A stretch of DNA of 64,000 nt from Spirochaetales bacterium (GTDB lineage: Bacteria; Spirochaetota; Spirochaetia; DSM-27196; SLST01): assembly GCA_046538735.1 (NCBI GenBank), contig JBKHII010000004.1:34393-98392 (forward strand). Direction: 5' to 3'. Below are positions 50,775 through 62,185 of this stretch, in pieces. Position 1 is the stretch's first letter. Every line of letters begins with the position of its first letter. The notes beneath the pieces were generated by a model that saw only the letters and a program-made list of their open reading frames with translations, had not been told where the DNA came from and did no database searches. A program made the translations under genes and the position numbers.

Positions 50775-51422
50775 TCAACGCGGCCGATTGAAGAAGCCCC
50801 CTCGAGCACCGAAGCGAAGCCAATCGTTTCTCGGGCGGCGCGGGCGGGGCGCTTCGAGCGCATCCGCGATGAAGCCGGCGTAACCGGGCGTATCGCTCGA
50901 GCGAGAGGAGCAGAGACGAATCTCGAGCGGCTCGTTCCGGTAGTAGCCCACGAGCGACTCCGCCGCGCCCACGAAGCTGCCGAGCGAGATCGCCTCGAGC
51001 GGGGGGCGAAGCTCGTCGTCCGGCTCCTGGAGCGCGAGGAGCAGCCGTCCCGACCGCTGCTTCTGGAACATGGCGACGATCTCGCGGATGAGGAAGAGGT
51101 AGCCCTTTACCTCGGCGTCCGTGCGATTCTCAATGCTCACGATCGAGCTCTCGTGAAAGGGAACGCTCTCGCGCACCGGCGAGAAGACGACGACCGCTTC
51201 GTCCAGCCGCCCGTAGAGGTTCTGCGCGTGCAGCACGACCGATCGCGCAGAGAGCGCCGAACGGCGGTTCCACGAGACGGTGGAAATGTTCTCGGCGCCC
51301 GAGTCCACGTCCAGCGGACCGCTGCGCGCAACCAGCGTCCTCCGCCCGCGGGCGGCGACTTCCTGCACGACATCGGCGAGCAGCTCGTTTGACTTGCCGG
51401 TGACGAGGCAGGCCTGTTCCAT
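50775..51422 (-). CDS. Degenerate SDR/Rossmann-like hypothetical protein
   Basis: ACLVTGKSNELL start, LYGRLDEAVVVF, MFQKQRSGRLLL; lacks GxxxGxG and YxxxK. Confidence 0.65.
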   Translation of the reverse strand: MEQACLVTGKSNELLADVVQEVAARGRRTLVARSGPLDVDSGAENISTVSWNRRSALSARSVVLHAQNLYGRLDEAVVVFSPVRESVPFHESSIVSIENRTDAEVKGYLFLIREIVAMFQKQRSGRLLLALQEPDDELRPPLEAISLGSFVGAAESLVGYYRNEPLEIRLCSSRSSDTPGYAGFIADALEAPRPRRPRNDWLRFGARGGFFNRPR

Positions 51423-51478
51423 GACTCGTGATAGTATAGCCGGCCCAGCAGCGGGTCAACGGGCGCGTCGGCCGGAGT

Positions 51479-51632
51479 CCGAGTCAACGCGTCTGCGCTG
51501 GTACGTTCCCGCGCCTGTAGCCTGCGAGCACGCGCGCCTCGCTGGTCCTCGGCCTGCGGCCTGCGGATTCGCTCGGGCGCGTGCTCTCCGGCACGGCGCG
51601 AGGCCGACCGCTCGACAGACGCATTGACTCGG
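51479..51632. repeat. Structured intergenic fold-back element, copy 1 (REPIN-like)
   Basis: Stems 51479-95/51616-32 (16/17), 51510-15/51595-600 and 51526-35/51577-86 (10/10); 40-nt core 51538-51577 shared with copy 2. Confidence 0.85.
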
Positions 51633-51700
51633 CGCGCCTTCGCAATTGGGGGCACGGAGGGCTCCGCTGGAGCCGTTTGGGTGGGAGAGGCGGCGGGGGG

Positions 51701-52474
51701 TCAGGTGGCGCGGGGGTGCCAGGTGAGCGTGCCGCGGACGGCGGGTTCGCCGGTGGGGCCGCGGGTGATCTCGAAGTGGTCGGTGGGGCCGGGTTGGGAG
51801 GAATCGGACTGGAGGCGGACGGTGTAGGTGTCGCCGAGGAGGGTTTCCTTGAGGAAGTCGATCGCGAGATCGGAGACGCAGGCGGTCATCGCGCGGTCGG
51901 GGTCGGCGGCGTCCAGGACCCACTCGAGGTAGGAGGCGTTGTTCACGTGGCGGTACTGGTCGATGTCGCGGTACCGGACGGGCTGCGGGCCTACGGCTCG
52001 CACGTGGTCGGCGGTCGGCGAATCGGCGGTCGGCGGATCGGCGGCGCGGTCAAGGTCTGCGGGGAACTCGCGGTCGGCGAGGACGAGGTCGCTCACAACG
52101 CGCTCGGGGCGCACGGGGCGGCCGCGGCCGCCGTCCACGACGAGCCAGCCGCTCGTGGCACGGGCGATGATCTCGTCCGCCTCGTCGTGAAGCGCGAACT
52201 CGCGGACGGCGAAGAGCTTCTCGGTGCCGACCGGGTAGGTCCGCACGGTAAACGCGTCGCCCCAGCGGGGGTAGCGGTCGATGTGGAGCCGGAGGCGCGA
52301 CAGGACCCAGAAGAGCGCGCCCTCCTCGCGGTGGTGGAACCCCTTGCCCAGGATGTGGGCGTGTTGCCAGGCGGCTTCCTGGAGCATGCGCACGAGCACG
52401 ACGAGCCTGAGCCGGCCGTCCGGGTCGACCTCGTAGGAGCGTACGGTGAAGTGTTCTCGATGCGTGCTATCCAT
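51701..52474 (-). CDS. Acyl-ACP thioesterase (double hotdog)
   Basis: FTVRSYEVD, LQEAAWQHA, WVLSRL, YRDIDQYRHVNNASYLEW. Confidence 0.92.
   Translation of the reverse strand: MDSTHREHFTVRSYEVDPDGRLRLVVLVRMLQEAAWQHAHILGKGFHHREEGALFWVLSRLRLHIDRYPRWGDAFTVRTYPVGTEKLFAVREFALHDEADEIIARATSGWLVVDGGRGRPVRPERVVSDLVLADREFPADLDRAADPPTADSPTADHVRAVGPQPVRYRDIDQYRHVNNASYLEWVLDAADPDRAMTACVSDLAIDFLKETLLGDTYTVRLQSDSSQPGPTDHFEITRGPTGEPAVRGTLTWHPRAT
52008..52044 (-). repeat. 15-bp in-frame tandem repeat (ADPPT ADSPT AD) in the thioesterase linker
   Basis: Plus strand tcggcggtcggcgaa tcggcggtcggcgga tcggcgg. Confidence 0.7.
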
Positions 52475-55400
52475 TCGTGACTCCCAGCCCCGCGAGCAGC
52501 GCGTCGACCCTGAACCCGGAGGCGCGTTGTGCCCGTTCGAGCCGTTGGACGAGCTCGAAGAGGCCGACCACGTCTGCAACGAGCCGATCGTGATCGGCGG
52601 CGGTCTCGGGCGGAACCTTGTCCATCGTAACAAGCGCGGTGGCGAAGATCCACCATCTCAGCTCTTCGAATCGTTCCTGGTTGAACCAGATTTCGCCCTC
52701 GTAGCGGTTGAAGCCGAGGTAGGTCGTGACGTCGCCGTCCGAGAGGAGCTCGTGCATGAGCCCCTGGAGAGGATCGTCCTCGGAGACGTGGCGCTCCCAC
52801 CACTCGCCGTGGCCGAGGAGCACCTTCATGAGGTAGACCCAACCGGGGTCGTGCGTCTCGGCGGAGAACGCGCGGGCGGCGCGCGTGATGAGACCCCACT
52901 CCTCGCAGATGCCGGCGGCCGACTCGTAGACGGCGCGGAGCGGGCGCAGGACGAGCCAGGCGGCGAGCAGGTCGCGGCGATCGCCACGTTCTTCGATCGC
53001 GGCGGTGTAGTACCGGACGGCGCTCCGATACGCGACAGGCGCGGCGTGCGGGGTCTCGAGTCGCAGGAACGGCAGCCGCTCAACGGCGCGAACTCCTCGC
53101 TCGAACGACGCGACGGCGGCGTCGATCGCGGCGTCGATCTGGTCGCGACCGGACGCGGTGCCGCCCTTCGTCGCCGGTTCCTGACCGCCGGTTCCCGCTC
53201 CCGCGACGAACGGTTGGTACTGCGCGCCGACCTGGAGGAATGAGCGGTAGGCGTGCGCGAGGCGGGCGACCGCCTCGCGGAGGAGTGCTGCCTTGCCGAG
53301 CATCGCCTCCTGGAGCTGGAAGAAGGTGTGGCTGTTCGCGACGCGCGCGTAGAGATCCAGGAGCGGCTTGAGCGCGATGTCGCGGATCGCCTCCTCCACG
53401 TCCGTGACGCCGCGTCCCCGGAGCTCGTCCACGAGCTGGGCGTAGTGGCCGTACGCGTTGTCCGCGGTTTCGTAGATGTCAACGTACACCTGACTCTGGT
53501 AGCCGGAGAGGTCCACGAAGAGCCCGCGCTCGTGGAGCTCCCTGCTCTCGCGGACGAACCAGAGCCCGTTGCGCTCGTCGCGAAGGAGGCAGTAGTAGCC
53601 GTGCTCCGCGTGGAGGCCGAGCGCGGAGGCGAGCTCGCCGCGGCGGTGCTGCTTACGCCCGCCGGGGAGTTTCTCCACGTAGCCGGCGGAGCTCTTGATC
53701 CAGCCGTACGCGCGCTCGTACGCGTTGTTGTAGAGGACGAGCGCGCGGTCGTCGCCGAAGGAGTTCGAGTAGGCGAAGACGTTCTCGTTCACGGTGCCGT
53801 CTTCGGTATAGAGGTCGTAGAGGAAGAAGCTCGCGACGCCGCTGAAAAGCCGGCGCCGGCGCATGAGCGGGAAGATCTCGGCTTCGTGGCGCGCGACGAG
53901 CTCGCGGTCGGGTTGCTCGCCGAGATACGCGCGTTTGTACTCCATCCCGTACTTCTCGGTAAAACCTTCGATCTGGCCGTGGCCGAACATGGGGAGGCCG
54001 GGCATCGTGACCATGAGCGTGCAGATGCCCACGTACTTGTCGCCTTTGCCGAACTGCGCGACGGCGGTCTCCTCGTCCGGATTGTTCATGAAGTTGACGA
54101 AGCGCTTGAGGATCTCCTTGTCGAACTCGATCGTGTTCTTGATCGTCTGGCGGTACTTCGCGTTCTCCTCCGCCTTGAGCATGTTCATGAACGCCGAGTT
54201 GTAGACGCGGTGCATGCCGAGCGTGCGCACGAAGTAGCCTTCCATCATCCAGAACGCCTCGGCGAGCAGGAGCGTGTCCGGGACTTCGGCGGCCACGCGG
54301 TCCACGACCTCGCGCCAGAACTCCGTTGGGATGCGCGCGTTGAACTCGTCCGCGCTCATGCCGTGCTCGGCGCGCGAGGGGATATCGCCGCCGTGGCCGG
54401 GCTCCGGGTACCAGAGGCGCTGGATGTGGCGCTTGGCGAGCGTCATCGCGGCGTCGAAGCGGATCACGGAGAAGTTGCGCGCGACGTGGAGGATGGTTTG
54501 AATGACCGCCTCGCGCACCTCCGGGTTCAGGTAGTCGAGCTGCGCGGTGTCGTTCCACGGCATGCTCGTGCCGTCGTTGCCGTGATAGATGAAGCGCTCG
54601 CGTCCGCTTCCGAAGTCGACGCGCTTGAAGACGACCGCGGCGTCCGACCGCGAGTAGTAGTGGTCCTCGAGATAGATGCCGACGTGCGGCACGCCGGAGA
54701 GGTTCTCGCCGGTGTACGTGTACGACGGGAACGGCGGATGGTCGAGCTGGACGTACCAGTCCGGGTGCTCGATGACCCACCGACCGTCTATGCCGGTATG
54801 GTTCGGCACCATGTCGCTCGCGATCCGGATGCCGCGCGCCTCGCACCGTTCGCGGAGGCTCGTGAGCGCGTCCCACCCTCCGAGCGACTCGGCGATCTCG
54901 TAGTCGGCGAGCGCGTACGCGGACGCCTCCGCCTCCATGTTTCCCATGACGTTCTTGATCCGCTTGGAGGCGGCGCTTCGCTCCCAGATACCGATCAGCC
55001 AGAGGCCGGTGAACCCCCACCCGGCGAGCCGGTCGAGCTCCTCGTCCGGGATCTGGTCGAGACGGGCGATCGTTCTCTCGTACGCGCGCGAGAGCTGGTC
55101 GAGCCAGACGAGCGTGCTCTTCGCGATAAGCACGAGCCGCGGCATCCAGTCGCGGTCGGGCGAGTACCGTTCCTCGTCGCCGCCCTCGTAGCGGTAGACG
55201 CGCGTGGGACCGGGACCGCCGAACCCGGCCTTCGCCTCCTCGCGCAGAACGTCCATGCCGCGGAGCAGCCGGAAGAGATAGCCGCCGAGAAGACTCCCCC
55301 ACCGTTCGCGGATGTAGGCGAGCTGGTCCTGCAGGCTGTTCGGAAAGAGCTCCGCCGGCGTGCGGAGCATCTCCACGAGCGGCTGGTCGTCCGGCCCGAA

Positions 55401-56036
55401 CCGCGGCTTGTCCGCGAAGTGGTCGGCGACCGCGCCGATGAGCTCGCGGTAGCCCGCCGCCTCGTCCAGCTCGTCGTCCGCGAAGAGCTCGGAGAAGGGC
55501 GAGAAGGCGGGATTCTCGTTCTCGAGCCGGAGCATGAGCATCTCTTCGAGCATCACCTCGCGACCGGACCGGCCCGCGTGCTCGGAGGCGAGGTAGTCGT
55601 CCAGCGACTGCTCGCCGGAGTAGACCGTGCTCGGCGGGAACTCGGCGGCGAACGCCCGTACCGCACTGTCAACGCGTTCCTCACCGAAGCGGGCGACGAG
55701 CGCGGACGCCGCCTCCGCGACCGTCTCCTCGCCGTACTGGTCGCGGTAGAGCTCCACCACGTAGTGGAGGATCTCATCGATCAGACCCATCGCGTTGATG
55801 TCGCCGGCGCGGACGACCGAGTCGGGGTCGTGGACGAGATCGCGGCCCTTGTTCATCTCTTCAGCAAGCCGACGGGTCGCCTGCAAGTCGGCGAGGACGA
55901 CGTTGCCGCTCAGCGCGTAGAGCGGCCCGGCGACGCGGTACTTCTCCCTCGCGCTGCGCCGCACGTGGAACTCGCGCAGGAGCTCCGGCCGTCCGTCCAG
56001 CGGCGTGATGCGAAGCTCGTCGCGTGACCGTTTCAT
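52467..56036 (-). CDS. Large GH13 alpha-amylase family protein
   Basis: DMVPNH, IRFDAAMTL (nucleophile), LLAEAFW (acid/base), FMNNPDE. Confidence 0.9.
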   Translation of the reverse strand: MKRSRDELRITPLDGRPELLREFHVRRSAREKYRVAGPLYALSGNVVLADLQATRRLAEEMNKGRDLVHDPDSVVRAGDINAMGLIDEILHYVVELYRDQYGEETVAEAASALVARFGEERVDSAVRAFAAEFPPSTVYSGEQSLDDYLASEHAGRSGREVMLEEMLMLRLENENPAFSPFSELFADDELDEAAGYRELIGAVADHFADKPRFGPDDQPLVEMLRTPAELFPNSLQDQLAYIRERWGSLLGGYLFRLLRGMDVLREEAKAGFGGPGPTRVYRYEGGDEERYSPDRDWMPRLVLIAKSTLVWLDQLSRAYERTIARLDQIPDEELDRLAGWGFTGLWLIGIWERSAASKRIKNVMGNMEAEASAYALADYEIAESLGGWDALTSLRERCEARGIRIASDMVPNHTGIDGRWVIEHPDWYVQLDHPPFPSYTYTGENLSGVPHVGIYLEDHYYSRSDAAVVFKRVDFGSGRERFIYHGNDGTSMPWNDTAQLDYLNPEVREAVIQTILHVARNFSVIRFDAAMTLAKRHIQRLWYPEPGHGGDIPSRAEHGMSADEFNARIPTEFWREVVDRVAAEVPDTLLLAEAFWMMEGYFVRTLGMHRVYNSAFMNMLKAEENAKYRQTIKNTIEFDKEILKRFVNFMNNPDEETAVAQFGKGDKYVGICTLMVTMPGLPMFGHGQIEGFTEKYGMEYKRAYLGEQPDRELVARHEAEIFPLMRRRRLFSGVASFFLYDLYTEDGTVNENVFAYSNSFGDDRALVLYNNAYERAYGWIKSSAGYVEKLPGGRKQHRRGELASALGLHAEHGYYCLLRDERNGLWFVRESRELHERGLFVDLSGYQSQVYVDIYETADNAYGHYAQLVDELRGRGVTDVEEAIRDIALKPLLDLYARVANSHTFFQLQEAMLGKAALLREAVARLAHAYRSFLQVGAQYQPFVAGAGTGGQEPATKGGTASGRDQIDAAIDAAVASFERGVRAVERLPFLRLETPHAAPVAYRSAVRYYTAAIEERGDRRDLLAAWLVLRPLRAVYESAAGICEEWGLITRAARAFSAETHDPGWVYLMKVLLGHGEWWERHVSEDDPLQGLMHELLSDGDVTTYLGFNRYEGEIWFNQERFEELRWWIFATALVTMDKVPPETAADHDRLVADVVGLFELVQRLERAQRASGFRVDALLAGLGVTNG

Positions 56037-56037
56037 C

Positions 56038-58029
56038 TTACCTCCCGGCGACGCGTCGTCTGCGGTCGCGCAGCATCGGAGCGAGGACCGCATGGAGCTC
56101 ATGGTTCGCGTGCAGGTCCTCGATCGGGACGCTCATGCGATAGCTCCAGTTCGCCTCGGTCATCGTGCCCGGCACGTTCACGCGCTCGTCGTCCGGATTC
56201 TCCGGCGCGAGCCCGTCCACGAGGGCGAGCAGGTCCTGGATCTGGAAGACGCAGAGCGCGGAGCCCGTGTGGAACATCGCTTCGGTCACCTTGCGCGCGG
56301 TCTCGGCGTCGTACTCCGCGGGCGGGTCTCCGGGCAATCCCAGACTCCTCCAGAACGGGCGGCGGTCGGGTTCCTCGCGCCACCAGCCGCGCATCGAGGA
56401 GGTGTCGTGCACCGAGGGCGCGCACACGGTGAGGAAGGGGTACTCGGTCGGCGGGATGTACGGTTGGCCCGGCTCGTGCCAGAGGCGTGTCCAGCGCGGG
56501 ATGCGCAATCCAAGGATGCGGAGCTCGGAGAGCACGCCCGGTACGCAGGCGGGAATCGCGCCAAGGTCCTCGGCGCACGGGAGCATCCCGGTCGCTTCGC
56601 GCATGAAGGCGAGTAACCGTTTCCCCTGTTCCTCCCAGAGCCGCTCCGACTCCCGCGCGAGCTCGTCTGCAAGCGCGCGAAAGCGGTCCTGCTCGTCCGG
56701 GCCGAGACCCTGGAAGCGGGAGCACGCTCCGTACGACCAGACCGGGACGAAGGTGTCGCGCTCGAGACGAATGAGCGCGCGATCGCGGTACTGCTCGAGC
56801 AGCCACTCGCGAGCGCGGTCGGAGCAGTCGAGCGCGAGAATGTCTCGCTCGCCCCGGATGGTCGGGGCGAGGAGGTAGAGGTCTTCGCCCTCGATGCGGT
56901 TGAGCGCGAGGCGGATGACCGTCTGAGCCTCCTCCCCCAACGTGTCACGAAGAGTGGTGCCCGATACGTGCGGCTCGGCGAGCCACTTGATTCGGCCGTT
57001 GTCCATGCCGGCGGCGTGCAGCCGGTCGCGGTCGGCGACCGCGGTCGGGTTGAAGTGACCGAGATAGCCGGTCACGTCGTCTGCGGGGATGCTCCACACG
57101 CGGAAGAAACCGAGCACGTGGTCGATGCGGTACGCCTTGTAGTATCGGGCTGCATGACGGAGGCGGTCCTTCCACCACCGGTAGCCGTCGTGCTCGAGCT
57201 GCATCCAGTCGTAGATGGGCAGACCCCAGTTCTGTCCCACGGCGCTCTGCGCGTCCGGCGGCGCGCCGGCCCGGAGCCACGAAGAGAAGTAGGAGCGGTG
57301 CGCCCACGTGTCCACGCTGTCTTCGTTGATGAGGATCGGGAGATCGCCCTTGAGGACGATCCCGAGCTCGGCGACGGCGTGTGCCGCGGCGCGGAACTGC
57401 TCGTCCAGCCGCCGCTGCACCCAGACGTGGAAGACGAGCTCGCGCTCGTTGGCCGGATCCGACCAGAGCGCGCCGAGCCGCTCGGGAGTCGGGTCGCGGT
57501 AGTCCGGCCACTCCTTCCACGCCGCGCCGCCGAACCGCGCCTTGAGCATCTTGTACGCCGCGTACTCGCCGACCCACGGATTGTCGTCCACGAAGGCGCG
57601 CGCCTCGCGCCGGAGCGTTTCGTTCCCCGCGACATCGTCGTAGACGAGGCGAAGCAACTCGGTCTTCGCGTCCACGAGCGCGCCGTAGCGCAGCCGGGGG
57701 GCGTCTGCGTGCTCCGCGCGAAGCGCCTCGAGCGCATCGTTCACGCGCGCCGCACGCGATGAGGAGAGCGCGCCGAACTCGGGAAGATCGGCGATCCGAA
57801 GGTAGAGCGGATGGAGCGCGAAGGCGCTCAGCGCGCTGTAGGGCGAGGCCTGCCACCCCGTGTCGTTGACGGGCAAGATCTGGATGAGGTCGAGCCCGAT
57901 CTCCGCGCACCATGCCGCGAGCCTCGGGAGATCGGCGAACTCGCCCACGCCCACGGAGGCGTCGCTGCGAAGCGCCGAGACCGGAACGAGGACGCCGGAG
58001 AGGTACCTCGTGAGCCCGGAGAACATCAT
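56038..58029 (-). CDS. malQ: 4-alpha-glucanotransferase (GH77)
   Basis: QILPVND, SPYSALSAFALHP, GDLPI, GQNWGLP, YRIDHVLGFFR, AEDLG, VHDT. Confidence 0.95.
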   Translation of the reverse strand: MMFSGLTRYLSGVLVPVSALRSDASVGVGEFADLPRLAAWCAEIGLDLIQILPVNDTGWQASPYSALSAFALHPLYLRIADLPEFGALSSSRAARVNDALEALRAEHADAPRLRYGALVDAKTELLRLVYDDVAGNETLRREARAFVDDNPWVGEYAAYKMLKARFGGAAWKEWPDYRDPTPERLGALWSDPANERELVFHVWVQRRLDEQFRAAAHAVAELGIVLKGDLPILINEDSVDTWAHRSYFSSWLRAGAPPDAQSAVGQNWGLPIYDWMQLEHDGYRWWKDRLRHAARYYKAYRIDHVLGFFRVWSIPADDVTGYLGHFNPTAVADRDRLHAAGMDNGRIKWLAEPHVSGTTLRDTLGEEAQTVIRLALNRIEGEDLYLLAPTIRGERDILALDCSDRAREWLLEQYRDRALIRLERDTFVPVWSYGACSRFQGLGPDEQDRFRALADELARESERLWEEQGKRLLAFMREATGMLPCAEDLGAIPACVPGVLSELRILGLRIPRWTRLWHEPGQPYIPPTEYPFLTVCAPSVHDTSSMRGWWREEPDRRPFWRSLGLPGDPPAEYDAETARKVTEAMFHTGSALCVFQIQDLLALVDGLAPENPDDERVNVPGTMTEANWSYRMSVPIEDLHANHELHAVLAPMLRDRRRRVAGR

Positions 58030-58102
58030 GGGAGTCGCCTCGTCGTGCCTCGCTGCATGAGCCTAGGATAGCGGTTTTCGTCCGGATCAGGAATGGGTGG
58101 GC

Positions 58103-58281
58103 GCGATTCGCGGCCCGGAGCCGAGGTGCCCGGGGTTGGCCGATCTGGACGCCTGTAGACGGGGCGCGCACCCGCTCGCTGGTCCTCGGCCTTCGGCCTG
58201 CGGGTTCGCTCGGGGTGCGCGCCCCGTCACGGCGTCCGTGCCGCCGGGCTCCCGGGCACCTCGGCTCCGCACGCGAGTCGC
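58103..58281. repeat. Structured intergenic fold-back element, copy 2 (REPIN-like)
   Basis: Stems 58103-12/58272-81, 58117-34/58251-68 (18/18), 58147-53/58231-37 and 58158-73/58213-28 (16/16); core 58175-58214. Confidence 0.88.
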
Positions 58282-58335
58282 TTCTGGGATGGGAGGAGCG
58301 ACGCAGAAGCGTTAGCCGAGACGCACCGGCGGGTG

Positions 58336-59304
58336 TTACCCTCGGCGTGCTCGCTTCCGCCCGACCAACACGCCCGCTACGAAGAGCTCCCAGGGGTGGT
58401 AGATCACGAGCGGGAGGAGCGCGACGCCGAGGAGGTCCTGGCCGGCGAAGAAGATCGTGAGGAGCGGGGCGCCGAGGGCGAGCGTCTTCTGGGGGGCGAC
58501 GAAGAGGACGGTCGTGCGATCGGCGCGTTCGAGCTTGAGGAGGCGGGCGCCGAGCGCGGCGAGAGCGAGGAGGAGGATGTGCGAGACGAGGAGGTAGAGG
58601 ATCGGGAGCGGGAGCTCGGCCGCGTAGCGACCGAAGGCGGGGTTCGCGGCGGTGTGCGCGAAGGCGAGGAGCACGATCAGGAGGATGAGGAGGTTGCTCG
58701 CGAAGGAGAGCGATGCGCTGCGGCGCGATACCCAGGTGCGGAGCTGGAGCCGGAGGAGCTGGCCCGCGACGATCGGCACGAGCATGTTGAGCGCGAGCCC
58801 CTGGAGCGTCGCGAGAAGCTGGGAGACCGGAAGCGCGCGGCCCGTGGTCGAGAGGAGGAGCGAGAGCAGGAGCGGCGAAACGAAGATGCCCGCGGCGTTC
58901 GCGAGCGCCGCGTTGAAGACCGCCGCGACGGTGTTGCCGCCGGCGCTCTGCGTGAAGACGATGCAACTCGAGACGGTGGTGGGAAGGACCGCGAGCGCAA
59001 AGATGCCCACGACGAGCTTGCCGTCCATCGCGCCCGAGAAGAGCGGCACGGCGGTGAGGAAGTAGAGCGGCGTGACCACGAAGATGAAGAGCTGGAGGAA
59101 GAGGTGCAGGCGCGGCGTGGCGAGGTCTCGCCCGATTCGATCGGACGGCAGCTTGAGCCCGGTGATCAGGAAGAGCACGAAGACGATGACCCGGTTCGTC
59201 CACCCGTCGGGATTGAGCAGCGCGCCCCGCTCGGCGAGCACGAAGCCGATCGCCATCGCGACGACGAGCCCTACGAGGAACCAGTTCTTCTTGAGCCAGG
59301 GCAT
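58336..59304 (-). CDS. Bile acid:sodium symporter family (SBF-like) transporter
   Basis: LFLITGLKL, LPTTVSS, AGGN...AVFNA, QKTLALG. Confidence 0.9.
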   Translation of the reverse strand: MPWLKKNWFLVGLVVAMAIGFVLAERGALLNPDGWTNRVIVFVLFLITGLKLPSDRIGRDLATPRLHLFLQLFIFVVTPLYFLTAVPLFSGAMDGKLVVGIFALAVLPTTVSSCIVFTQSAGGNTVAAVFNAALANAAGIFVSPLLLSLLLSTTGRALPVSQLLATLQGLALNMLVPIVAGQLLRLQLRTWVSRRSASLSFASNLLILLIVLLAFAHTAANPAFGRYAAELPLPILYLLVSHILLLALAALGARLLKLERADRTTVLFVAPQKTLALGAPLLTIFFAGQDLLGVALLPLVIYHPWELFVAGVLVGRKRARRG

Positions 59305-59356
59305 GATCCCTTATACACTATGGAAAAGCACTTCGCCATAGTGTAGGGTTGGCACC

Positions 59357-61210
59357 GTGACACGCCGCCACTCCATCGTTTCCATCGTCGGCCTCCTTCT
59401 TCTTCTTCTCCCGCTTCAGGTCGGCGCGCAGTTCGCCAAAGGCCCCGATCAACTCCCCGACCGCGCGGTCGTGGCGCGCCGTTCCGCTGGGACGCTCGAA
59501 CGATCGGTGGACGGCGGTCTCACCTGGGAACAGGTCGGAGGTATGCCGACGCGTGTGCTCCCGGCCTATCGGGCGGGCGAGCCGCTTCCCGTCACGGCGT
59601 TCGCTGTGCCCGCCCCGGATCCCGCCGACGCGGCCGCCCGAACCGCGCTCGCCCGATCGCCCGGCGTGAAGCAGCCCGGCTACCACGTCGTGAGCGCGGA
59701 CGCGCCCGCGCTCGCCGCGGTGGGCAGGCAGCTCTTCGTGAGCCGCGACGGACTCGAGACGTGGCACGAGATCCGGCTCCCGGACGTGGTCAATCAGTCG
59801 ACCTACATCACCGCGCTCGCGATCGACCCGGCCGACCACGCCCACTGGCTCGCGGCAACCTCGTACGACGGCGTCTATCGCACGCAGGACTCCGGCGCCT
59901 CGTGGACCGACCTGACCGCCGATCGCGCCGCGTGGCCGACCTACCTGGGCGCCGGTTTCCACGAGGAGATCTCCGGCCTCTGGTTCACCGCGCACGACTA
60001 TCTGATCGCGCGCGCCGGCTTCGGCCAGGGCTTCCTGCGCATCGAGCTCGATCCGCTTCGCGTGCGCCGGCTGCTCCCGCTCGCGGACGGCGAGCAGGCG
60101 TACGCGGCCGCCGCCTTCGCGCTGGGAGCCACGAGCGCGGCAGGCAGCGGCGCGAGCCGCAATCCGGCCGCGACCGCGGGCCCGGCGACGGACGCAGCGG
60201 CCCGGCGCGCGGCTGCCGCCGACCGGACCGGAATCTACCTCACCGCGGTGAACGCGACGCCGGAGAAGCTCCCCGCCTACTTCGACTACATCGAACGCCA
60301 CGGGTTCAATAGCGTGGTCGTCGACTTCAAGGACGACCACGGTCGGCTCACGTACGCGAGCGAGCTCCCAACCGCGCGCGCGGCGGGCGCGGTCCGGCCC
60401 GTCATCAACGCGGCGGAGCTCGTGGAGGCGGCGCACGCGCGCGGCATCTCCGTGATCGCGCGGATCGTCGTCTTCAAGGACCCGATCCTCTACGCGTACG
60501 ACGACCATCGCCTCGCGCTCTGGGACGGCAGGCTCGACCGGCCGTGGGGCGTCTACCGGAGCTACACGGACGAGGAGACCGGCGCGGCGCGAACGGTCCA
60601 GGTCGAGCATTGGGTCGACGCCTACTCGCCGGAGGTCTGGGAGTACAACGTCAACGTTGCTCGCGAGGTGGCGGACCTCGGCGTGGACGAGATCCAGTTC
60701 GACTACATCCGCTTCCCCTCCGACGGCCGCGCCGAGGACATCGTGTCGCGCTTCGCGGTGCCGGGGGCGAACCGCGTCCAGGCGCTCGAGGGCTTCCTCG
60801 CGTCGGCCCGCGACGCGATCGACCTCCCGATCAGCATCGACGTCTTCGGCTTCAACGCGTGGTCGCGGATGAGCTACCTGGGACAGGACATCACGCGCCT
60901 CGGACGCTACGTGGATGTGATCAGCCCGATGTTCTACCCGTCGCACTTCGTGACGTCGTTTCTGCCGCAGTTCGGCTACCTCGAGCGCGCCCGCCTGATC
61001 TACGACCTGGGAACGCGCCGCGCGCACGAGCTCGCCCCCGAGCCGCTCATTCGTCCCTACGTGCAGGCATTCCTGATCGGCCGCGAGCTCGATTTCGAGG
61101 AGCCGACCTACCGCAGGTATCTCGACCTCCAGGTGGAGGCGTCGCTCGAGGCCGGGTCGAGCGGCTACACGCTCTGGAACGCCTCGGGTCGGTACTACAT
61201 GCTTCCCTGA
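59357..61210 (+). CDS. Exported putative glycoside hydrolase (DUF4015-like) with N-terminal BNR/Asp-box repeats
   Basis: SVDGGLTW, SRDGLETW, TQDSGASW; VVDFKDDHG, IARIVVFKD, DEIQFDYIRFP, PMFYPSHF. Confidence 0.85.
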   Translation: MTRRHSIVSIVGLLLLLLPLQVGAQFAKGPDQLPDRAVVARRSAGTLERSVDGGLTWEQVGGMPTRVLPAYRAGEPLPVTAFAVPAPDPADAAARTALARSPGVKQPGYHVVSADAPALAAVGRQLFVSRDGLETWHEIRLPDVVNQSTYITALAIDPADHAHWLAATSYDGVYRTQDSGASWTDLTADRAAWPTYLGAGFHEEISGLWFTAHDYLIARAGFGQGFLRIELDPLRVRRLLPLADGEQAYAAAAFALGATSAAGSGASRNPAATAGPATDAAARRAAAADRTGIYLTAVNATPEKLPAYFDYIERHGFNSVVVDFKDDHGRLTYASELPTARAAGAVRPVINAAELVEAAHARGISVIARIVVFKDPILYAYDDHRLALWDGRLDRPWGVYRSYTDEETGAARTVQVEHWVDAYSPEVWEYNVNVAREVADLGVDEIQFDYIRFPSDGRAEDIVSRFAVPGANRVQALEGFLASARDAIDLPISIDVFGFNAWSRMSYLGQDITRLGRYVDVISPMFYPSHFVTSFLPQFGYLERARLIYDLGTRRAHELAPEPLIRPYVQAFLIGRELDFEEPTYRRYLDLQVEASLEAGSSGYTLWNASGRYYMLP

Positions 61211-61228
61211 CATGGTATAGTGGCGCCC

Positions 61229-62185
61229 ATGCAAGCTGTCGCGGAGTGGGCACGCAGGATCGTGGAATCGGTCGAGACGGTGTTCTTCGGCAAGCGCGCG
61301 GTCATCGAGCGGTTGCTCGTCGCGCTGCTCTGCAGGGGGCACGTGCTGCTCGAGGACGTCCCCGGGATGGGGAAGACGATCCTCGCGCGCGCGCTCGCGG
61401 CGAGCCTGGGCGGGAAGTTCACGCGAATCCAGTGCACGCCCGACCTCCTTCCGGCGGACATCTTGGGCGTGAGCGTCTACAACCCGAGCGACGGTACCTT
61501 CCGCTTCCGCAAAGGGCCGATCATGGCGAACATCGTCCTCGTGGACGAGATCAACCGCGCGACGCCGCGGACGCAGTCGGCGCTGCTCGAGGCAACCGGC
61601 GAGGGCCAGGTAAGCGTGGAGGGCAAGCGGATGGAGCTGCCCGAGCCGTTCTTCCTCATCGCCACCGAGAATCCGGTCGAGTTCGAAGGCACCTTCCCGC
61701 TCCCCGAGGCGCAGCAGGACCGCTTCCTGCTCTCGATGAGCATCGGGTACCCCGAGCGGACGGTCGAGCAGCGAATCGTGGACAGCCAGCGGCGCCTCAC
61801 GCACCCGGTGGTGGACGTGGAGCCGGTCACCGAGATCGCGGACGTGCACGAGCTGCAGAAGCAGGTCGTGGAGGTCCACGTTGACCAGGAGGTGATGGAC
61901 TACGTCAGCGCTCTCGTGGAGGCGAGCCGCGGTCACCAGCAGGTGCGCATCGGCGTGAGCCCGCGCGGGACGCTCGCGCTCTACAAGTCGGCGCAGGCGC
62001 TCGCGGCGGTGCGGGGCCGCGACTACGTCATCCCGGAGGACGTGAAGGAGCTCTGCCGCCCGGTCTTCGCGAAGCGGATCATCCTCACGAGCCAGGCGGT
62101 GATCCGCGGCATCGCGGTGGACACGGTGATCACCTCGCTCCTCGATTCGGTGCCGACCCCCGTGGTGCCGGAGCAGCGGGCGTGA
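61229..62185 (+). CDS. MoxR family AAA+ ATPase
   Basis: HVLLEDVPGMGKT, RIQCTPDLLPAD, DEINRATPRTQSALLE, GTFPLPEAQQDRF; ATG 7 nt after TG-n-TATAGT. Confidence 0.95.
   Translation: MQAVAEWARRIVESVETVFFGKRAVIERLLVALLCRGHVLLEDVPGMGKTILARALAASLGGKFTRIQCTPDLLPADILGVSVYNPSDGTFRFRKGPIMANIVLVDEINRATPRTQSALLEATGEGQVSVEGKRMELPEPFFLIATENPVEFEGTFPLPEAQQDRFLLSMSIGYPERTVEQRIVDSQRRLTHPVVDVEPVTEIADVHELQKQVVEVHVDQEVMDYVSALVEASRGHQQVRIGVSPRGTLALYKSAQALAAVRGRDYVIPEDVKELCRPVFAKRIILTSQAVIRGIAVDTVITSLLDSVPTPVVPEQRA

Follow-up and report, generated by a model that had tools for sequence, protein, structure and literature searches.

Intergenic palindromic repeats of bacteria are normally confined to a genus or a family. 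The enterobacterial repetitive intergenic consensus (ERIC) sequences or intergenic repeat units (IRU) of enterobacteria, the Correia elements of Neisseria (Correia repeat enclosed elements, CREE, or Neisseria miniature insertion sequences, NEMIS) and bcr1 of Bacillus cereus are imperfect palindromes of about 100-150 bp that lie between genes and are transcribed; each belongs to one genus or family and is conserved over its full length, and some are accompanied by target duplications. Repetitive extragenic palindromic (REP) sequences are shorter, with units of 20-40 nt present in hundreds of copies. Integron attC sites act as folded single strands, lie at gene 3' ends and have their functional strand antisense to the gene; they conserve the basal R boxes and sit in cassette arrays beside an integrase. 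Here, we analyse two long intergenic fold-back elements in a stretch of 64,000 nucleotides (the window) from a Spirochaetales bacterium (contig JBKHII010000004.1, positions 34,393-98,392, assembly GCA_046538735.1). An initial annotation made from the letters alone had proposed them as members of a new REPIN-like family (REPINs being hairpin-forming REP doublets). They share an asymmetric tip, the cap, and this cap defines an apparently undescribed family that spans Spirochaetota, Clostridia, Coriobacteriia and one metagenome-assembled genome (MAG) labelled Fibrobacteraceae. The best explanation, for which we see about an even chance, is a mobile, horizontally spreading palindromic repeat that settles at transcript 3' ends and whose cap is read in the folded state by a trans-acting factor.

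The search for further copies gave different answers inside and outside the window's genome. In the window, where no chance match is expected, the core pattern with up to three mismatches has exactly two matches, against 0 in 100 dinucleotide shuffles. The genome itself (G000; G and L numbers denote genomes and loci) is assembled to 3.14 Mb in 130 contigs at 64.5% G+C and is 91% complete. It yielded no third copy by regular expressions allowing up to 8 substitutions, by blastn-short or by a covariance model, whose next best score after the two elements was 12.8 bits. The initial annotation had held the family idea to be lost if these two copies were the only ones and homologues showed no covariation; two is indeed the number in this genome, where the element is thus not REP-like in abundance, but it is not the number for the family. 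A blastn search of relatives returned three homologues, in each of which the two conserved halves again enclose a mini-hairpin that varies. In public genomes the strict 40-nt core pattern had 0 matches, and a pattern made of the two halves matched at least 119 stretches, most of them chance matches in coding DNA of high-G+C genomes (Streptomyces and others). About 30 clear hairpins stood among the matches listed, which included rumen Clostridiales, Ruminococcaceae, 'Roseburia sp. CAG:303', Mageeibacillus, Collinsella and Enorma as carriers, besides the MAG labelled Fibrobacteraceae.

The covariance model (R1; 61 positions, 18 pairs) was seeded with 29 distinct instances, from the window and 23 loci, chosen for paired arms and the 3' motif. 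At E <= 1e-3, 19 of the 99 genomes of the window's order were positive, with 0-28 copies each (28 in G012, 7 in G014, 1-4 in the others); the 11 congeners gave one weak match, and 0 of 150 other Spirochaetota genomes were positive. The Clostridia order around G101 had 16 positive genomes out of 121, with 1-31 copies, and five carriers gave 56, 37, 17, 17 and 4 matches (G099, 56; G101, 37; G100, 17). Coriobacteriia hold 4-17 copies per genome, Enorma massiliensis having 17, and copies also occur in G079 and in other genera (G077, G075, G039, G032, G016). Many of the R1 matches lie at contig ends. Viral contigs contained 78 pattern matches but only four weak R1 matches of at most 21.4 bits, and no clear member. 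Against Rfam 15, no family reached the gathering threshold in the window, and 14 loci with clear instances gave only tRNAs; in E-value mode, positions 51400-51700 returned only a 4.8-bit chance match. We found no description of the family in the literature, where the core strings occurred in text only as primers and in unrelated passages, although the supplementary motif lists of PMC11109978 and PMC8632094 might hold one. The proposal of a multicopy family is therefore upheld by R1 matches in several phyla and no match in Rfam.

The unit is a long hairpin, the tip of which is an asymmetric module of about 45 nt: (Y)CGCT[G/T]GTCCTCG, a variable mini-hairpin, and then CTGCGGnnnCGCTC. Over 48 distinct spirochaete copies the consensus reads yyCGCT[G/T]GTCCTCG, mini-hairpin, CTGCGG[A/G]G[T/A]CGCTCC. 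The gap between the conserved halves ranges from 9 to 43 nt in the seed copies, as the mini-hairpin varies in length. The halves are thus neighbours only in a folded strand, and we infer that a hairpin is recognized here and not duplex DNA. In the same 48 copies, 82.9% of cells are paired compared with 67.6% in shuffles, and double-sided changes number 130 compared with 50.6; none of 500 shuffles reached either observed value, and a shift of the 3' partners over one to three columns lowered pairing to 30-51%. One core pair is G-C in 39 copies, A-U in 8 and G-U in 1, and is never unpaired; another alternates between U-A (20), G-U (13) and other combinations (14). Several mismatches are themselves conserved (U-C, G-R, U-C and a bulged U). 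The claim that the elements are selected for structure is supported by these values, which lie beyond all 500 shuffles. A further copy, L268 from the rumen Clostridiales genome G100, is identical to window positions 51538-51567 over 30 nt, including the mini-hairpin GGCCTGCGGCC.

These observations also bear on the simplest alternative, in which ordinary terminator hairpins resemble each other by chance or base composition and there is no family at all. Many of the at least 119 pattern matches do represent chance similarity in coding regions of high-G+C genomes. This reading is nevertheless refuted by R1 scores of 30-72 bits in low-G+C genomes, by the covariation and the shuffle test, and it does not account for 30 identical nucleotides shared by the window and a rumen Clostridiales copy; we give it virtually no credence.

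Within the window, the features of the two elements (Table 1) agree with what the initial annotation had described. We call 'plus' the strand on which the core reads CGCTGGTCCTCG...CTGCGGA, which is antisense to the genes in the window. The two 40-nt cores differ at 2 of 40 positions. The basal motif CGCCTGTAG precedes the core by 17 nt in element 1 and 16 nt in element 2, and CACGGCG trails it by 14 and 13 nt, respectively; the stems between core and basal motifs are unrelated in sequence across the elements and keep their pairing. On the minus strand the apical loops are c-GCA-g and c-GAA-g, and GAGCGAA faces AGCGAG, as had been noted. Both strands of both regions fold far better than shuffles: element 1 reaches -91.8 kcal/mol (z -3.49) on the plus and -103 kcal/mol (z -6.66) on the minus strand, and element 2 -144.5 kcal/mol (z -9.01) and -139.8 kcal/mol (z -9.88). 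Since the elements share no arms beyond the basal motif while their caps are 95% identical, they are not recent duplicates of each other. Basal forms related to CGCCTGTAG (GCGCCTGcc.. and GCTTGCGCAGG) occur in other genera of the window's order.

What changes between copies is the arms. In G012 and G099 the arms, too, are conserved between copies, and among the 9 copies from G100 and the 12 from G101 that were compared only the cap and an A-rich 5' and T-rich 3' arm composition are common. Downstream of one orthologous gene, whose C-terminal 120 residues are 88-98% identical, the cap is present in 2 of 10 related genomes, with unrelated arms; at the same site the other genomes have one degenerate cap, one perfect palindrome derived from the 5' half of the cap, and otherwise different sequence. 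At one such site (L269, in G104), downstream of the ortholog of L251:22-1485, stands a terminator hairpin, GCGGTCCTCGGC-AATCCC-GCCGGGGACCGC. It resembles the 5' half of the cap turned into a near-perfect palindrome, a hint that a hairpin may be 'corrected' to match its own opposite arm. Arms that are inverted repeats without mismatch over at least 60 nt flank the cap at L056:5100-5360, L108 and L104:1540-1653, in Collinsella and a related MAG; at the orthologous loci L087 and L122 a similar right arm stands next to a non-complementary left arm. The comparison suggests that arms can arise by inverted duplication of one flank.

At L104:1627-1960 the element ends after CTGCGGAA and is followed by unrelated sequence of lower G+C, with an inverted CGATTCCGCAG about 130 nt further on; the following sequence had no other occurrence in the genome collection. 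This may be an insertion, or an assembly chimera or artefact at a long palindrome.

G012 shows signs of recent multiplication of the element. Two of its copies, from different loci with unrelated 5' flanks, share 98.6% identity over 214 nt, the unit there is about 142 nt long with inverted CAGGGCRAACGCACA at its ends, and a composite of about 500 nt (hairpin, 220-nt spacer, inverted hairpin) is present at least three times. Tandem arrays of left arm plus cap occur at L252:2809-3092 (period 75), L026:2342-2596 (100) and L254:1611-1729 (61 nt); the right arm is found in the last unit only, and in two arrays the junction lies directly after AATCGC. The outer ends of the element differ between genomes. 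An element that has multiplied in certain genomes, was seldom or never detected in their close relatives and recurs in unrelated phyla would appear to behave as non-autonomous mobile DNA that has also moved between lineages. Its arms would be free to vary provided that pairing is kept.

The site of element 1 allows the comparison of empty and filled sites that had been suggested: the gene order 215-aa protein-thioesterase-amylase-malQ is kept in the congeners G002, G005 and G008, and likewise, minus the thioesterase, in G007, and all four have no element at this site. The spacer above the 215-aa gene is about 50-100 nt long in these congeners versus 278 nt in the window's genome. The malQ-transporter spacer (window positions 58030-58335) is 306 nt including element 2 and 1.6-1.75 kb in G002 and G007 (L366:7085-8611, L367:11525-13275), where in G002, the only genome in which Pfam was consulted for this, the open reading frame (ORF) in it encodes a 508-aa gamma-glutamyltranspeptidase. 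Synteny upstream of malQ differs between the window's genome and the congeners, and there is no simple empty and filled pair there. The congener spacers without the element make the window copies lineage-specific, either gained here or lost in the others; they look like old, isolated copies.

DNA of the window occurs in microbial-mat metagenomes, with no RNA dataset among the sequencing runs listed for it. Low-depth contigs match, between 51436 and 51893, only positions 51538-51577, and thus point to a related strain with the same cap and other arms at this site. No clean empty-site joint was found in the metagenome contigs, the letters inside the 51436-to-51893 joint in X1 being unread.

The position of the copies ties the family to transcript ends. 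Ten genes upstream of the element encode GroEL (twice, in two phyla), PFL, GlmS, Pta, LeuA, two ABC transporters, a glycerate-kinase fusion and an ABC1 kinase; each is encoded on the element's plus strand and stops immediately upstream of the element, and one further copy follows a tRNA. In Clostridia and Coriobacteriia (n = 52), 31 copies have their longest upstream ORF on the same strand and 14 on the opposite strand, and 7 have none. Neighbouring copies no more than 700 nt apart form 12 convergent, 0 divergent and 8 tandem pairs, the inverted ones being spaced by 55-337 nt. For REPIN-type doublets as a mobile unit speaks the one composite that is repeated in G012; on the other side, in at least four loci of moderate G+C, the two elements simply stand between convergent genes, each sense to its own gene. 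A T-run of at least four follows 15 of the 21 copies in G100 and G101 and precedes 2 of the 21. In the reading that we favour, copies would persist at the 3' ends of transcription units, and the hairpin, transcribed into the message end, would most likely serve as a terminator, a 3'-end protector or an insulator, while the cap would be read only when folded, by a trans-acting factor. The occurrence of dozens of copies after unrelated genes argues against a gene-specific switch.

The same facts feed the first rival, that the cap is a host-beneficial cis-acting RNA module, its plus strand binding a host RNA-binding protein or RNase at message 3' ends to control stability, termination or processing, with copies made multiple by selection and spread being secondary. 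The 3'-end position with its sense bias, the uniformly convergent inverted pairs, the copies after a tRNA and highly expressed genes, and a cap kept while the arms turn over at orthologous sites all accord with it. At the core pairs, moreover, plus-strand G-U exceeds A-C by 37 to 14 in one set and by 56 to 29 in another, although 37 of those 56 cells come from one conserved position. A precedent for a small aptamer embedded in a terminator is the riboswitch for 4-amino-5-hydroxymethyl-2-methylpyrimidine diphosphate (HMP-PP), as described in excerpts of PMC6478431. However, the distribution is patchy, from 0 to 56 copies among close relatives, whereas a function for the host should make for a more even one, and the near-identical copies and the tandem arrays resemble selfish spread. 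The plus-strand C-UUC-G loops and pyrimidine-pyrimidine mismatches are also not known as stable RNA motifs. We consider this module a possibility to be reckoned with, though not a probable one.

The second rival is the earlier annotation's own reading, in which the minus-strand hairpin, with its GNA triloop and sheared G-A pairs, is a single-stranded DNA (ssDNA) substrate cut or copied by an HUH nuclease or recombinase encoded elsewhere; its strict form is a REP/REPIN system with a REP-associated tyrosine transposase (RAYT). The use of mismatches and bulges by strand-selective ssDNA enzymes is established for attC and IS608, and conserved mismatches and bulges are present here. The minus-strand triloop generalizes well beyond the window: C-GNA-G occurs in 42 of 110 distinct instances on the minus strand and in 3 on the plus strand, and the strand asymmetry is present in all three phyla. 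Excerpts of PMC3201870 and PMC13037366 describe d(GNA) loops closed by C-G and GCGNAGC DNA mini-hairpins as exceptionally stable; the same motif stands at the minus-strand apex here, whereas those are, as far as these excerpts go, structural motifs and not genetic elements. The minus strand owes its greater stability to mismatches that are tandem G-A/A-G pairs in a CGAG context or single G-A pairs. The multicopy nature of the family and its inverted doublets would also suit such a substrate. On the other hand, convergent pairs cannot both follow replication polarity, and in most copies the upstream gene has the minus strand as its template, so that this strand is not the lagging-strand template for co-oriented genes. 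Evidence on the acting strand is therefore split: position and orientation point to a transcript carrying the plus strand, and loop and mismatch chemistry to the minus strand.

No candidate enzyme for such a substrate emerged from a search for a partner that covered five candidate families in 5-10 genomes. The REP/RAYT mechanism fails in particular, as the Y1 transposase was not found in the genomes with 56, 37 and 17 copies, does not flank the element where it is present, and GTAG is not conserved. Y1_Tnp (PF01797) had no match in G000, G079, G099, G101 and G100, and around six Y1 loci (in G012, G014 and G077) there was no element within 1.5 kb, the best score being 9.7 bits. The GTAG that had been taken as a hallmark is present, among the copies compared, only in those of the window, G014 and G016; GCCACG, GCTGAC, GCAGG and similar strings replace it in G077, G075, G079, G039, G032 and G012. 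Taken together, we regard an ssDNA substrate as rather unlikely.

Other candidates were set aside one by one. TnpB gave nothing above the cut-off in five of five genomes, and IS110 was found in G012 only. Reverse transcriptase is encoded in four of the five high-copy genomes, G099 being the exception, and shows no linkage to the element; its genes adjoin trkA/trkH in G100 and G101, with inconsistent placement of the element relative to them. A stand-alone reverse transcriptase gene of about 410 aa lies beside trkA/trkH in two related rumen Clostridiales genomes (L371:5012-6238, L372:3774-5021). The Ro-binding stem of Y RNA is GCUGGUCC. A Y RNA/Ro relationship was dropped, since TROVE (Ro, PF05731) was not found in five of five high-copy genomes and Rfam gave no Y_RNA match. 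Domain IV of signal recognition particle RNA, the sarcin-ricin loop, the K-turn, and the hammerhead and hairpin ribozymes were also rejected, because their defining nucleotides mismatch and there is no Rfam match.

Comparison with the described systems places the element close to several of them and inside none. Like REP sequences, bacterial interspersed mosaic elements (BIME) and REPINs, it is an intergenic imperfect palindrome at gene 3' ends, multicopy in some genomes, with inverted doublets and tandem clusters, and its hairpin is presumably read folded. It differs from REP in its unit of 140-180 nt, in a conserved part that is an asymmetric cap at the tip, in its 0-56 copies per genome instead of hundreds, in the lack of a Y1 transposase that tracks or flanks it and of a family-wide 5' GTAG, and in a cap that crosses phyla. 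With ERIC, Correia and bcr1 it shares insertion in either orientation, a copy number that varies among relatives and the effects to be expected on message ends; unlike them, it has a cap that alone is conserved across phyla, arms that are locus-specific in several genomes, and no duplication in evidence. Rho-independent terminators also stand right after stop codons, the A-tract and T-tract arms in two Clostridia genomes are terminator-like, and, as in terminators with an embedded aptamer, the stem houses a conserved internal-loop module; yet the window copies have no U-tract and T-runs are not enriched in G099 and Coriobacteriia. The element thus works like REP/BIME, ERIC and Correia sequences without belonging to any of them, and is set apart by its apical, phylum-crossing conservation.

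Integron-type attC sites, or the ends of a known insertion sequence (IS) or miniature inverted-repeat transposable element (MITE), would likewise be folded imperfect palindromes; attC sites share with the element the location at gene 3' ends, the bulged bases and the variable apical structure, and the inverted CAGGGCRAACGCACA at the ends of the G012 units is a MITE-like feature. But the hairpin bases contained none of the R''/R' boxes of attC (RYYYAAC/GTTRRRY; IntI was not searched for), the apex is conserved and not the base, and the copies are dispersed with no cassette arrays. Nor do the varying outer ends, with no target duplication and no linked transposase, fit an IS or MITE. We hold this explanation to be very improbable.

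Several findings weigh against a mobile repeat at transcript ends, in which we nevertheless place the most confidence. Neither Y1_Tnp, TnpB, IS110 nor reverse transcriptase tracks the element, no mobilizing enzyme was found among the families searched, no parent element with a gene was seen, and 20 copies in G012 and G014 showed no target-site duplication. In the spirochaete order (n = 48), the upstream ORFs are on the same strand in 13 cases, on the opposite strand in 23 and missing in 12, which runs counter to a sense rule even though these ORF calls are crude and unreliable at 65% G+C. Both window copies are antisense to the neighbouring gene, as are about a third elsewhere, with further clear cases at L229 (twice), L240 and L256; such common antisense copies count equally against the host RNA module. 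Neither window element has a U-tract or terminator-like site, and T-runs downstream show no enrichment in G099 (6 of 16 copies) or Coriobacteriia (1 of 10). Of 94 instances, 73 have their more stable fold on the minus strand, with a mean advantage of 3.8 kcal/mol, and the GCGNAGC mini-hairpin, like the GNA triloop, favours the minus strand (27 of 110 instances, compared with 0 on the plus strand). Copies within one genome share descent, so that counts such as these overstate independence. Finally, conservation of the core is inflated by a seed picked with an exact pattern; the R1 matches are less biased.

A more specific proposal, which we put forward only tentatively, is that the cap is the recognition module of a gene-less mobile element of a new type, copied to or seeding long palindromes at transcript ends and crossing phyla. 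Its folded single strand would be read by a host or other enzyme, and its arms would come from local inverted duplication. The idea of local arms was prompted by the perfect inverted arms in Collinsella and by the orthologous loci that keep the right arm only.

The neighbourhood of the two elements is as follows (Table 1). As had been stated, both sit between minus-strand genes, in the same orientation and just past gene stops. Read along the minus strand, the order is SBF-like transporter, element 2, MalQ, amylase-domain protein, acyl-ACP thioesterase, element 1 and the 215-aa protein. The promoter-like site of the 215-aa gene is the sole sigma-70-like site in 51300-58450; element 1 lies about 20 nt upstream of it, and the stretch around it is conserved in congeners, adjoining the point of insertion. 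At most, the window copies would act as hairpin insulators, between the thioesterase gene and the next promoter and between the transporter gene and malQ. Elsewhere in the window, positions 59318-61936 (minus strand) encode an 872-aa protein with no Pfam match that is conserved in congeners. Within the amylase-domain gene, at 53900-54400, the depth of metagenome contigs roughly doubles with many variant positions, probably reflecting a conserved or repeated domain shared with other mat organisms.

Table 1. Features of the two fold-back elements and of the adjacent genes (window coordinates).
Feature	Position	Strand	Remarks
Element 1, whole fold-back (outer stem, basal motif, middle stem, apical core)	51481-51630	+	Folds; covariance-model score 58.1 bits
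Element 1, basal motif, 5' half, CGCCTGTAG	51512-51520	+	Read from the sequence
Element 1, apical core: two conserved halves flanking a short GGCC-TGC-GGCC hairpin	51538-51577	+	
Element 1, basal motif, 3' half, CACGGCG	51592-51598	+	
Element 2, whole fold-back	58103-58281	+	Folds; covariance-model score 43.8 bits
Element 2, basal motif, 5' half, CGCCTGTAG	58150-58158	+	Read from the sequence
Element 2, apical core with hairpin GGCC-TTC-GGCC	58175-58214	+	38/40 identical to element 1
Element 2, basal motif, 3' half, CACGGCG	58228-58234	+	
215-aa protein gene (hyp215), without Pfam family	50775-51422	-	Directly beyond element 1; conserved in congeners
Promoter-like site TTGACC-17-TACTAT	51459-51431	-	8 nt before the ATG of the 215-aa gene
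Acyl-ACP thioesterase gene	51701-52633	-	Pfam PF01643 and PF20791; stop about 70 nt from antisense element 1
4-alpha-glucanotransferase gene (MalQ, GH77)	56038-58029	-	Pfam PF02446; start about 75 nt past element 2
SBF-like transporter gene	58336-59304	-	Pfam PF13593; stop about 55 nt from antisense element 2

A module of about 45 nt thus recurs almost letter for letter in mat spirochaetes, in rumen and gut Clostridia and in Coriobacteriia, with dozens of copies per genome in some species. That the cap is kept across otherwise unrelated hairpins suggests that a conserved protein or process reads it as folded RNA or ssDNA. In common gut bacteria, the repeat would also contribute to the ends of numerous housekeeping transcripts (groEL, pfl, pta, glmS and a tRNA). 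The covariance model offers a direct handle on the family, for which Enorma massiliensis and Collinsella are cultivable carriers. In the assemblies of its carriers, the family also accounts for contig breaks and for perfect palindromes of great length, a point of use in genome annotation.

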